Positions 1 through 1,188 of a stretch of 1,188 nucleotides of DNA are shown in pieces. Source of the DNA: a phage; the sequence record OR846228.1. One strand, given 5' to 3'. A program made the position numbers and the translations under genes. The notes under the pieces are model-generated. The model saw nothing but the letters and a program-made list of their open reading frames with translations, made no database searches and had not been told where the DNA came from. The stretch's first letter is position 1. The number at the start of each line of letters is the position of its first letter.

Positions 1-55
1 TTCTTCGAATCCCGATTCCCTGAGCTGTTAAAGCTGCTCGATACCGTTCATTGAG

Positions 56-1051
56 GTGACCGTGAGAGCACTACTGACTCCTGAAATTGCCCCGCGTATG
101 GGGATCGTATTGTTCAGACCCGGTTCAGAGCTGATGCCCCTGTTTATGCAGGGGCGTGTCCTGCTGGAGCCTGAGCCGGAACGTTATTCATCTTTCGCCA
201 GTGGTGCCGTTCCGGCGGCATCACAACCGCTGGCGGATGATCCTGCCGTTCGGGCCGTGTTCCGCAATGAGGCAGTGATCCGTCGTGCTGGTGGCGTGGA
301 ATGTCTTGAAAGCTGGTTACTTCGTGAAAAAGGCTGCCAGTGGCCTCATTCCGACTGGCACAGCGAGAACATGACCACAATGCGACACGCTCCGGGCGCA
401 ATCCGTCTGTGCTGGCACTGCGATAACCAGCTGCGCGATCAGTTCACGGAACGGCTGGAATCAATGGCAACGGATAACTGTGCCCGCTGGGTGTTGTCTG
501 TTGTGCGTCGGGATCTCGGTTTTGATGACAGTCACGTTGTGACAATGCCGGAACTGTGCTGGTGGCTGATTCGTAATGACCTGGCGGATGCCTTACCGGA
601 AAGTGCAGCCCGTAAGGCACTGAGATTACCAAAGCCTGTTGTGCCGTCTGTCACCCGGGAAAGTGACCTTGTGCCTTCGGTTCCTGCCACCAGCATCATC
701 CAGGATAAAGCGAAAAAGGTGCTGGCGCTGAAAGTGGATCCGGAGTCGCCGGAGTCTTTTATGTTACGCCCAAAACGTCGCCGCTGGGTTAATGAAAAGT
801 ACACGCGCTGGGTTAAGACACAGCCGTGGGCATGTTGTGGAAAGCCCGCTGATGATCCCCACCACCTGATAGGCCACGGTCAGTGTGGAATGGGTACAAA
901 AGCGCATGACCTTTTTGTGTTGCCTTTGTGCAGAAAGCATCACGACGAGCTGCATGCGGATACCGTGGCATTTGAAGAGAAGTATGGCTCTCAGCTGGAG
1001 CTGATATTTCGTTTTATCGATCGTGCGCTGGCAATTGGCGTACTGGCGTAA
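56..1051 (+). CDS. Uncharacterised lambdoid-prophage protein, DUF968 / YdfU-like family; Cys/His-rich, possible HNH-like nuclease domain at C-terminus
   Basis: Longest ORF in the window (331 codons, GTG 56 to TAA 1049-1051), in frame with stop TAA 29-31 upstream. All four minus-strand ORFs are nested antisense within it. It sits immediately upstream of a Q-antiterminator homolog, matching the ydfU-quuQ arrangement I recall from the E. coli K-12 Qin prophage. Conserved-looking C-terminal motif WACCG...DPHH...GHGQCG...LCRKHHDELH. Start codon is uncertain: GTG 56 is the first canonical start but has no well-spaced SD; alternatives are GTG 62 and ATG 98. Family assignment is from memory, not a search. 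Confidence 0.8.
   Translation: MTVRALLTPEIAPRMGIVLFRPGSELMPLFMQGRVLLEPEPERYSSFASGAVPAASQPLADDPAVRAVFRNEAVIRRAGGVECLESWLLREKGCQWPHSDWHSENMTTMRHAPGAIRLCWHCDNQLRDQFTERLESMATDNCARWVLSVVRRDLGFDDSHVVTMPELCWWLIRNDLADALPESAARKALRLPKPVVPSVTRESDLVPSVPATSIIQDKAKKVLALKVDPESPESFMLRPKRRRWVNEKYTRWVKTQPWACCGKPADDPHHLIGHGQCGMGTKAHDLFVLPLCRKHHDELHADTVAFEEKYGSQLELIFRFIDRALAIGVLA
596..688 (+). repeat. Imperfect in-frame direct duplication within the CDS (cGGAAAGTG...TTGTGCCgTCtGT / gGGAAAGTG...TTGTGCCtTCgGT), encoding PES...VPSV and RES...VPSV
   Basis: Read directly: the 9-mers c/gGGAAAGTG at 597-605 and 657-665, and TTGTGCC followed by near-identical bases at 639-652 and 669-682. The encoded VPSV tetrapeptides are exactly 10 residues apart (aa 196-199 and 206-209). 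Confidence 0.55.
740..757 (+). repeat. Tandem 9-bp in-frame repeat CCGGAGTCG / CCGGAGTCT encoding Pro-Glu-Ser twice
   Basis: Read directly: 740-748 ccggagtcg, 749-757 ccggagtct; translation DPESPESF (aa 228-235). Confidence 0.7.
782..816 (+). repeat. Exact 11-bp direct repeat CGCTGGGTTAA, copies 24 bp apart and in frame, encoding R-W-V-(N/K) twice
   Basis: Read directly: cgctgggttaa at 782-792 and 806-816; protein RRWVNEKYTRWVK (aa 242-254). Confidence 0.7.
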
Positions 1052-1064: not shown

Positions 1065-1188
1065 ATGAACTTTGAAGCCTTACCGAAATATTACTCCCCA
1101 AAATCTCCAAAATTGAGCGATGACGCACCGGCGACAGGCTCTGGTGGTTTAACAATTACGGATGTGATGGCTGCGCAGGGGATGGTGC
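1065..1188 (+). CDS. quuQ: Lambda Q-family late-gene antitermination protein, N-terminal 41 codons only (continues beyond window end)
   Basis: ATG 1065 preceded by GGAG at 1054-1057 (7-nt spacer). Translation MNFEALPKYYSPKSPKLSDDAPATGSGGLTITDVMAAQGMV aligns without gaps to the lambda Q N-terminus as I recall it (MRLESVAKFHSPKSPMMSDSPRATASDSLSGTDVMAAMGMA), sharing the SPKSP and TDVMAA-GM blocks and roughly half of positions. Symbol quuQ is given by analogy to the Qin prophage Q homolog; the exact ortholog is not verified. Confidence 0.85.
   Translation, partial: MNFEALPKYYSPKSPKLSDDAPATGSGGLTITDVMAAQGMV

Follow-up and report, generated by a model that had tools for sequence, protein, structure and literature searches.

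The window (the whole 1,188-nt stretch of DNA analysed here) carries an early nin-region gene of the DUF968/YdfU family, and on balance its product can be read as a two-module zinc protein in which a C-terminal HNH domain would act as a nickase on recombination or replication intermediates. The gene, its family, its genomic context, its fold, the conservation of its motifs and the purifying selection acting on it are established. It is an ordinary and very common prophage gene, present in the window as a near-identical copy of an annotated gene.

An uninterrupted open reading frame on the + strand, 56..1051, appears in the ORF list of the window and would give 331 aa from GTG 56, which is how the initial annotation described it. 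While this frame is confirmed, translation probably starts at 62, since all annotated homologues begin two codons downstream of GTG 56 (MRALL, 329 aa), since the 329-aa product of 62..1048 is on record exactly and the 331-aa form is absent from the record, and since the spacing of a GAGG motif suits the second GTG. The gene thus most likely extends over 62..1051 rather than 56..1051 (Table 1). Comparison of natural alleles gives 20 synonymous and 6 non-synonymous differences, and this pN/pS of 0.09 indicates a real gene under purifying selection. The product is rich in Cys and His, as had been stated, with 10 and 12 residues, respectively. No promoter-like site was found within the window, and the ORF contains only weak terminator-like hairpins (z -2.2 and -1.3).

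Table 1. Features of the window, with their positions, strand and basis.
Feature	Position	Strand	Basis
KilA-N domain gene, 3' end (stop TGA 52-54)	1..54	+	RefSeq and phage annotations of 98-99% identical DNA
GAGG ribosome-binding site of GTG 62	53..56	+	Read from sequence; spacing suits the annotated start of homologues
DUF968/YdfU-family CDS, 329 aa and stop	62..1051	+	ORF, Pfam DUF968, phrog_96, recorded product, pN/pS
N-terminal module, aa 1-190: small beta sheet, helices, beta-beta-alpha zinc-finger-like unit, helical bundle	62..631	+	
Putative N-terminal Cys/His site and beta-beta-alpha unit, aa 92-125: C92, H100, C117, C120, W118, D121	335..436	+	Conservation, predicted structure
Lower-confidence linker, aa 191-235: ESD(L/I)xP near aa 200-205, VDPE near aa 224-228	632..766	+	Conserved E200, D202, D226
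C-terminal HNH / His-Me finger domain, aa 236-329, after basic stretch RPKRRRW	767..1048	+	
TGG, Trp256 at the first Cys of the CxxC zinc knuckle (C256W; C258W in 331-aa numbering)	827..829	+	Homologue comparison
Cys259, second Cys of the CxxC knuckle	836..838	+	Cys in 28/32; aligns with Gp16 C148
His267-His268, end of beta strand 1 (aa 265-268), predicted general base	860..865	+	Each His in 29/32
Cys275, natural polymorphism	884..886	+	Gly in 25/32; T at nt 884 common to E. coli E2865 and MBT-5
Asp283, position of the HNH middle 'N'	908..910	+	Asp in 32/32 homologues
C290-x-x-H293-H294-x-x-x-H298 on helix aa 291-299: two predicted zinc ligands, then two predicted metal-binding His	929..955	+	
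Q-type late antiterminator gene, 5' part (Qin ydfT type)	1065..1188	+	phrog_127 'anti-termination protein Q-like' E 3e-14; near-identical records annotated antitermination protein

The DUF968/YdfU-like assignment made in the initial annotation is borne out by a strong profile match. Residues 162-328 match Pfam DUF968 (PF06147) with 260.8 bits and E 8e-78, against a gathering threshold of 27.8 bits, and cover profile positions 2-171 of 171, and PHROG phrog_96 'HNH endonuclease' is matched over the full length (E 5e-174). The HNH core alone matches HNHc_6 (PF16784) with 21.6 bits and E 1.8e-4, under the gathering threshold of 26.6 bits. No NCBIfam model matches the protein at E <= 0.01, so that no curated NCBIfam family claims it, Ref included if such a model exists. 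Pfam gives no match to NinG or other nin families at E <= 1, and neither an HTH nor another regulator domain was found in the protein. The sequence search of the PDB returned only a weak match to YbcO (E 0.018 for the single sequence and 1.1 for the profile) and did not retrieve Ref. Architectures in which DUF968 is fused to IstB, LexA_DNA_bind, MT-A70 or HTH_36/Phg_2220_C look like fusions of neighbouring genes in single odd contigs, and were not counted. The family had also been described as lacking an established function, in agreement with the literature, where we found no paper assigning a tested or a non-nuclease function to DUF968/YdfU and no report of a DUF968 protein being assayed. 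In the His-Me finger classification of Jablonska et al. (2017), group 7 unites DUF968 with DUF1364, YdfU is named and a role in recombination is proposed (PMC5714182). The nuclease/recombination idea has been in print since 2017, the same recombination-nuclease hypothesis having been reached there independently (PMC5714182).

The gene lies directly upstream of Q, as first proposed, the ORF from 1065 matching Q-like antiterminator PHROGs (Table 1). The order RusA, KilA-N, DUF968 gene, Q is found in phage mEp460 and in E. coli MBT-5, and the locus of a 37%-identical homologue reads lambda-P, Dam, methylase, RusA, ANT, DUF968. No linkage to defence or anti-defence genes was seen in mEp460, in MBT-5 or in the locus of that homologue. 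Of 5426 complete E. coli genomes, 3725 contain near-identical DNA, some with as many as 6 copies, and so do 74 phage records; the gene family occurs in many Stx2-converting phages. Its distribution over the lambdoid phages is mosaic, and lambda is not known to carry a DUF968 gene.

The C-terminal domain has the beta-beta-alpha-metal fold of the HNH / His-Me finger superfamily, its nearest structures being those of Ref and YbcO and not those of homing or packaging HNH types. Conservation along the protein is highest here (entropy 1.39 bits, against about 2.2 elsewhere). Residue conservation was counted over 32 homologues with 25-99% identity, and the window has the whole catalytic set H267, H268, D283, H294 and H298, each member of which is kept in 29-32 of the 32. 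Within the helical motif, C290, H294 and H298 are each kept in 29/32, and position 293 is Cys or His in 28/32. His267-His268 align with the HH of Ref and the A-H157 of Gp16, and C290/H293/H294/H298 correspond to C181/H184/H185/H189 of Gp16. Asp283 stands seven residues ahead of C290, a spacing that we take to match the Pfam HNH pattern. Every computational check proposed for the suggestion that the protein is a nuclease or recombination factor, among them the DUF968 profile and the predicted HNH-like fold, was positive and supports it; the suggestion is not new.

The N-terminal two thirds of the protein form a separate, putatively zinc-binding module outside the Pfam domain, which the initial annotation missed. 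Residues 1-159 match no Pfam family, and a fold is confidently predicted for the first 190 residues (pLDDT 91.3), whose charge is near neutral. C92 and C117 are invariant among the 32 homologues, positions 100 and 120 hold either Cys or His without exception (19 H and 13 C at each), and W118 and D121 are kept in 31/32 and 30/32, respectively. In the predicted structure, strands at aa 104-109 and 112-117 are followed by a helix at 118-124. This site would bind zinc, and it is kept more strictly, with all four positions in 32/32, than the C-terminal zinc site. The module is followed by a less confidently predicted segment (pLDDT 67-73 over aa 191-230). The N-terminal fold weakly resembles HNH folds, the catalytic histidines being absent. 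BLASTP and hhalign comparisons of the N-terminal finger with the C-terminal HNH were not significant, so that a possible origin of the one by duplication of the other rests on hints at the level of the fold.

How such a protein might act can be proposed by analogy. As a lambdoid phage gene on the pR side, in the nin region, it would be expressed early. Residues 236-329 would constitute an HNH / His-Me nuclease of the Ref / YbcO / Gp16 clade, with a structural zinc site of the form CxxC...CxxH and a catalytic set of the form His-His ... Asp ... His-x3-His. The N-terminal module (aa 1-190) would bind DNA or a partner protein and thereby direct the nuclease, which, to judge from Ref and Gp16, the nearest relatives that have been characterised, would most likely nick DNA without strong sequence specificity. 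It would act on intermediates of recombination or replication, possibly bound or stimulated by RecA, early in lytic growth and beside RusA, a resolvase whose gene lies two genes upstream. What we infer here is that the protein binds zinc, is a nuclease, has such a substrate and may be linked to RecA. The analogies with Ref and Gp16 extend over about 55-77 aligned residues and the N-terminal parts of these two proteins are of other kinds, which weighs against this proposal, as do the lack of an NCBIfam match, the HNHc_6 score under its threshold, the PdcB branch without catalytic His, the dispensability of P1 pdcB and the zinc ligand missing from the window copy. A bolder version, to be held only tentatively, would make YdfU/PdcB-type proteins tandem two-finger proteins, in which a dead N-terminal His-Me/treble-clef finger, whose recognition of a DNA structure or of a partner such as RecA would be the conserved core function, steers a Ref-like HNH nickase that is active in lambdoid/Stx phages and switched off in the PdcB branch; in Stx phages such a protein could link SOS induction to replication and toxin output.

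The copy in the window departs from its family at codon 256, a substitution that was not noticed in the initial annotation. This column is Cys in 31/31 other sequences and in all matched top-120 cluster representatives, and the four-ligand zinc site to which it belongs (C256, C259, C290, C/H293) is complete family-wide, the window retaining three ligands. Among 1602 E. coli genomes, window:812-901 finds no exact match, the best ones differing only at nt 829, and a 29-mer containing the TGG is absent from viral contigs, GTDB species genomes and metagenomes. The chances are about even that the window copy is non-functional or its sequence wrong, either because a zinc ligand has been lost or through an error in a short multi-copy assembly. 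The invariance of the replaced Cys and the absence of the W256 allele from the 1602 matching genomes and three large collections both point this way. Furthermore, the exact protein is known from a single 1188-nt contig, which is the draft window itself, the segment is present in up to 6 copies per genome, and in Gp16 mutating the three zinc ligands other than C145, the counterpart of C256, abolishes activity (PMC12817073). Either a defective allele or an error of assembly may thus lie behind the unique C256W in a window that is the whole of a 1188-nt draft contig. Against this, the rest of the ORF is intact, the remaining differences from natural alleles are all ordinary, and four homologues without other zinc ligands retain the catalytic His, so that the fold may tolerate an incomplete zinc site. 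If the base call is correct, the window copy is probably impaired.

Regarding the family as a whole, it is conceivable, though unlikely, that the conserved job is the binding of DNA or of a partner, by a zinc-finger regulator or scaffold encoded before a late regulator, with an accessory or vestigial nuclease. P1 PdcB and the representatives P0189, P0192 and P0256 are full-length proteins that keep both Cys/His scaffolds and have H267, H268, H294 and H298 replaced together, and since the PdcB branch retains the scaffolds without these four His, an activity independent of the nuclease must exist. In addition, the gene immediately downstream of pdcB is lpa, which encodes the late activator of P1, a parallel to the DUF968 gene directly upstream of Q, and the N-terminal zinc site is the more strictly conserved of the two. 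The toxicity of Gp16 is likewise abolished by zinc-finger mutants, and only partly by catalytic-His mutants (PMC12817073). However, in the window's own branch the four catalytic His and D283 persist in 29-32/32 sequences, down to 28% identity, which is difficult to account for if catalysis plays no part; conservation is also highest in the HNH region, and the searches for a regulator domain or HTH returned none.

A quite improbable reading makes the protein mainly a host-takeover or toxic effector, which would damage or condense host DNA early and so stop host replication in the manner of Gp16, or would serve counter-defence. Gp16, the closest characterised relative in sequence, inhibits host growth and host replication (PMC12817073), the DUF968 gene sits in the accessory nin region, and a very strong Rho-dependent terminator upstream of Qin ydfU is one of a set said to silence toxic genes of prophages (PMC9160355). 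Against it stand intact copies in thousands of lysogens, up to 6 per genome. As for defence, PADLOC gives no match to the protein and no linkage to defence or anti-defence genes was seen in the three loci above, so the anti-restriction alternative raised at first drew support neither from PADLOC nor from an informative context. Host toxicity, moreover, overlaps with the two-module nickase and does not exclude it. Finally, phage HNH genes often have homing or packaging roles (background in PMC12817073) and the gene is mosaic in its occurrence, but a selfish HNH endonuclease of the homing type, or an HNH that works with terminase in cos/pac cleavage, is very improbable given one fixed slot, from KilA-N/ANT to Q, across distant homologues, structural neighbours (Ref and YbcO) of another type, and a position far from the terminase genes, unlike that of HK97 gp74-type proteins, the terminase small subunit of the MBT-5 prophage being adjoined by a separate small HNH gene (L003 16688-17053) about 6.6 kb downstream.

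The DUF968/YdfU family is among the commonest unassigned prophage genes in E. coli. If YdfU-type proteins act like Ref/Gp16, they could affect prophage induction and recombination between co-resident lambdoid prophages, and also the antibiotic response of pathogenic E. coli; P1 Ref raises killing by DNA-damaging antibiotics (PMC4713147). On the family question the window itself brings no new biology; what it holds is one probably damaging or erroneous base.

Several known proteins can be set beside that of the window. YdfU from the Qin prophage of E. coli K-12 belongs to the same full-length family, has a predicted His-Me fold (PMC5714182) and adjoins a Q-type antiterminator (ydfT), and near-identical phage genes carry the annotation 'YdfU family protein'. 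The window copy falls into the 329-aa mEp460/SfV/Stx-phage allele group, as opposed to the longer Qin-type proteins, and is further set apart by C256W; representatives of 348-352 aa with about 50% identity exist (P0128, P0135). In lambda, NinG (Rap), NinH and NinI occupy the same slot on the pR transcript, with the replication genes on one side and Q on the other. Rap, too, is a nuclease, acting on DNA branches (PMC4118853), but the lambda nin genes share no sequence or family relationship with the window protein and are positional analogues only. YbcO from DLP12 / phage 82 (DUF1364, PDB 3G27) is a 96-aa single domain without an N-terminal module, and its nuclease activity is only predicted (PMC4999995).

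P1 PdcB is a full-length homologue, with 27% identity over the whole protein, in which both zinc scaffolds are kept. Its four catalytic His are however replaced, HH by YI, CxxCH by CxxCQ and H298 by E. The gene is located on a plasmid prophage, after phd-doc and directly upstream of a late-gene activator, and is non-essential (PMC10695390).

With P1 Ref (PDB 3PLW), a RecA-dependent HNH endonuclease that cuts RecA-bound DNA only (PMC4330346), the window protein shares a structurally similar HNH core, although the similarity in sequence is marginal (hhalign probability 66%). The N-terminus of Ref consists of 76 disordered basic residues (PMC4330346), whereas the window protein has a folded 190-aa module and only the short basic RPKRRRW before the HNH. 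Gp16 from PhiNM1 (HNHc_6) has a homologous HNH core (BLASTP 43% over 53 aa, E 7e-9; hhalign probability 95%) and itself scores over the DUF968 cut-off (29.1 vs 27.8 bits). Its N-terminus is NinB/Orf-like (PMC12817073), a fold not found in the window protein, and its gene, from a phage of a Gram-positive host (Staphylococcus), is likewise early and lies near SSB, replication genes and RusA. Gp16 has been shown to be a nickase and binds RecA, its zinc-finger mutants, including C148A, are inactive, and C181/H184/H185/H189 have been tested by mutagenesis (PMC12817073). Gp16 and the window family have in common the CxxC / CxxH zinc knuckles and the H ... H-x3-H catalytic set.

A single long open reading frame is found on the plus strand of the window (56..1051), upstream of a Q-like ORF, with a match to Pfam DUF968 (260.8 bits, E 8e-78, residues 162-328 in the 331-aa form) and a full-length match to PHROG phrog_96 (E 5e-174), which bears out the initial annotation of a DUF968/YdfU gene in this position. 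The reading frame itself stands, but the 331-aa size and the start at 56 probably do not. Two in-frame GTG codons lie within 56-64, and all annotated homologues start at the second (62), two codons further 3', with MRALL and a length of 329 aa. The product of 62..1048 is present exactly in database records, from which the 331-aa form is absent, and GAGG at 53-56 is suitably placed as a ribosome-binding site for GTG 62. Because homologue starts, recorded protein and GAGG all favor GTG 62, the gene is probably 62..1051, encoding the 329 aa used here for residue numbering.

The gene belongs to an early-region run ending at Q that comprises replication genes, RusA, KilA-N and the window gene, and the local order RusA, KilA-N, window gene, Q can be found in phage mEp460 and E. 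coli MBT-5. The lambda nin region is known for terminators upstream of Q. Five hairpins resembling terminators are present in the window vs. 1.1 expected from shuffles, the strongest hairpin being at 978-1020 (-12.7 kcal/mol, z -2.2). Since all are weak and lie within coding sequence, they are probably not functional. In the Qin prophage, a very strong Rho-dependent terminator precedes ydfU (PMC9160355).

Features in and around the DUF968/YdfU-type gene (window coordinates unless a locus is named)
Feature	Coordinates	Strand	Remark
KilA-N domain gene, terminal portion	1-54		
Q-like antiterminator ORF	from 1065		
Terminator-like hairpin	739-753	+	
Terminator-like hairpin	985-1004	+	
Terminator-like hairpin	480-494	+	
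Terminator-like hairpin	1130-1118	-	
Linker motif RESD(L/I)VP	653-676		directly before HNH domain
Linker motif VDPE..FM.RPKRRRW	734-787		directly before HNH domain
Separate small HNH endonuclease gene, same prophage	L003 (E. coli MBT-5 locus) 16688-17053		adjoins terminase small subunit

The gene is real and under selection. DNA with at least 80% identity to the window is present in 3725 of 5426 complete E. coli genomes, in up to six places per genome, and 74 phage records also contain it, among them mEp460, SfIV and many Stx2-converting phages; the window differs from three natural alleles by 20 synonymous and 6 non-synonymous changes (pN/pS 0.09). In a genome-wide association study of STEC, one ydfU allele, ydfU_1, showed an association with haemolytic uraemic syndrome (OR 4.3), alongside stx2B and a Q-type gene (PMC11950266), most likely as a result of linkage to the Stx2 prophage. 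Among 1.84 billion cluster representatives searched, 1850 relatives were found at E <= 1e-3, many of them full-length proteins with identities down to 25-30%; 32 relatives were aligned, and the AlphaFold model built from this alignment has a mean pLDDT of 84.8. Two longer database entries, P0001 (526 aa) and P0002 (476 aa), repeat most of the gene internally in tandem (from about aa 64 to 260 in P0001), which may be an assembly artefact or a real duplication. In four single-contig proteins (P0142, P0175, P0182, and P0233), the DUF968 C-terminus is fused to IstB/DnaC-like, LexA DNA-binding, MT-A70 or HTH_36/Phg_2220_C domains; since the partner domains are those of the usual neighboring genes, the fusions seem to stem from deletions or chimeric calls and not to be true architectures.

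Conservation within the protein is highest in the C-terminal domain (aa 236-329). The domain opens with RPKRRRW, in which P237 is nearly invariant and K238 invariant, and carries the family motif C256-x-x-C259 ... H267-H268 ... D283 ... C290-x-x-(C/H)293-H294-x-x-x-H298. Zinc-finger HNH domains follow the generic pattern CxxC ... HH ... N/D ... CxxCH ... H, with which the aligned motif agrees. With high confidence, the structure prediction requested by the initial annotation assigns to the domain an HNH fold like that of Ref, YbcO and Gp16 in which the catalytic set is complete, and this predicted fold and the catalytic residues place the protein in the His-Me finger superfamily, with a zinc site that is incomplete in the window copy. 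Indeed, nucleotides 827-829 read TGG, encoding Trp256 (258 in the 331-aa numbering) in place of the first Cys of the CxxC zinc knuckle, a position occupied by Cys in all 31 other aligned sequences and in all matched cluster representatives. No complete E. coli genome matches window positions 812-901 exactly, the best differing only at nt 829, nor does the 29-mer across TGG occur in the viral, species-genome or metagenome collections. Only one contig, of 1188 nt, is recorded as the source of the exact 329-aa protein, and the window is therefore an entire short draft contig, probably derived from a repeat common to several prophages in the source genome. Either a zinc ligand has recently undergone a probably damaging mutation in C256W, or the change is an error; the window copy itself may be defective or mis-assembled. 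Cys275 (884-886), at a position in the HNH hairpin loop where Gly is usual, is a natural polymorphism common to E. coli E2865 and MBT-5; the aligned residue of YbcO is likewise Cys. Four distant aligned relatives (P0174, P0186, P0197, and P0242) have lost zinc ligands at 259, 290 and/or 293 and retain Cys256 and all catalytic His, the reverse of what the PdcB branch shows.

Upstream of this domain, a separate, conserved N-terminal Cys/His module is present, and no Pfam family covers aa 1-159. Modelled separately (pLDDT 91.3, pTM 0.73), aa 1-190 fold into a small sheet, helices, a beta-hairpin with a helix (aa 104-124) and a helical bundle. None of the 32 aligned sequences departs from Cys at 92 and 117 or from Cys/His at 100 and 120, and W118 and D121 hardly vary; judging from this pattern, residues 92, 100, 117, and 120 look like a four-ligand zinc site. 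Profile comparisons of the module with the C-terminal domain, Ref and Gp16 were not significant. At position 109, where the first strand ends, the alignment shows no conserved His; the module, if it is a second His-Me-like finger, would be non-catalytic. The lower-confidence linker (aa 191-235, pLDDT 67-73) contains short conserved motifs around E200/D202 and D226, which could serve to dock a partner protein or form a basic arm that binds DNA, as the Ref N-terminus does.

The reading slightly favored as a whole is a zinc-binding, two-module nickase acting on recombination or replication intermediates. Both Cys/His sites would bind zinc, the C-terminal domain would nick DNA with little sequence preference, and the N-terminal module would provide recognition of a substrate or partner. 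The intermediates would plausibly be RecA-bound, a link that is in itself rather doubtful, and the enzyme would act with RusA in early lytic growth. The nuclease or recombination role first proposed for the gene agrees with the DUF968 match, the predicted HNH fold, the full catalytic set and the links to Gp16 and Ref. Alternatively, the role could be one of binding, independent of catalysis, as suggested by P1 PdcB, a full-length homologue (27% identity), and likewise by three metagenomic relatives (P0189, P0192, and P0256): in all four, H267, H268, H294, and H298 are replaced together while both zinc scaffolds are kept. Moreover, lpa, the gene of the late activator, directly follows pdcB (860-1900 in the P1 locus L011), just as Q follows the window gene. 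However, the lambdoid branch keeps the catalytic residues throughout. The pdcB gene is dispensable. P1, whose PdcB lacks all four catalytic His, thus encodes an active Ref together with an apparently inactive YdfU-like protein. A host-takeover toxin like Gp16 overlaps with the nickase reading and has no direct support, PADLOC giving no match for the window. A homing or packaging HNH enzyme is very unlikely in view of gene position and of the separate terminase-adjacent HNH gene, which already fills the packaging-type role.

The gene, its family, the predicted fold and the idea of a recombination nuclease are already in databases and papers. Minor points that may be new are Ref as the top structural match for long YdfU-type proteins, the sequence link to the newly characterized Gp16, the strict conservation of the N-terminal Cys/His site, the coordinated loss of catalytic residues in the PdcB branch and the private C256W change. 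The DUF968/YdfU family is a fair experimental target, to which the window itself adds nothing unexpected. No experiment on any DUF968 protein proper was found in the literature. In the His-Me finger classification, DUF968 and DUF1364, with YdfU and YbcO named, make up group 7, for which RusA, Q and antirepressor neighbors were noted and a recombination or repair nuclease was proposed (PMC5714182); an independent prediction also made YbcO a Ref-related nuclease (PMC4999995).

Among proteins with experimental data, Gp16 of Staphylococcus phage PhiNM1 is the closest in sequence (BLASTP 43% over 53 residues, E 7e-9; hhalign probability 95%); it matches Pfam HNHc_6 (E 4.9e-117), and its HNH core also exceeds the DUF968 threshold (29.1 bits). 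An early protein, Gp16 binds dsDNA and introduces nicks into plasmid DNA; it also binds RecA, which stimulates it. Gp16 inhibits replication of the host, and the phage requires it to replicate normally (PMC12817073). Its growth-inhibition phenotype is lost in the zinc-ligand mutants C148A, C181A, and H184A but only partly in catalytic-His mutants (PMC12817073). Ref, whose cutting is confined to RecA-bound DNA and includes targeted breaks in D-loops (PMC4330346), aligns more weakly (hhalign probability 66%, E 5.5e-5) and shares the signature PC-x-x-C ... HH ... PLCR-x-HH. While the window protein belongs to Pfam DUF968, it is neither a member of the Ref family, with which only the core fold is common, the N-terminus being different and an HMM match lacking, nor of the HNHc_6/Gp16 type, since its score is under threshold and its N-terminus different. 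The likeness to lambda NinG, NinH, and NinI is one of position only; by analogy, the window protein plausibly works like Ref and Gp16.
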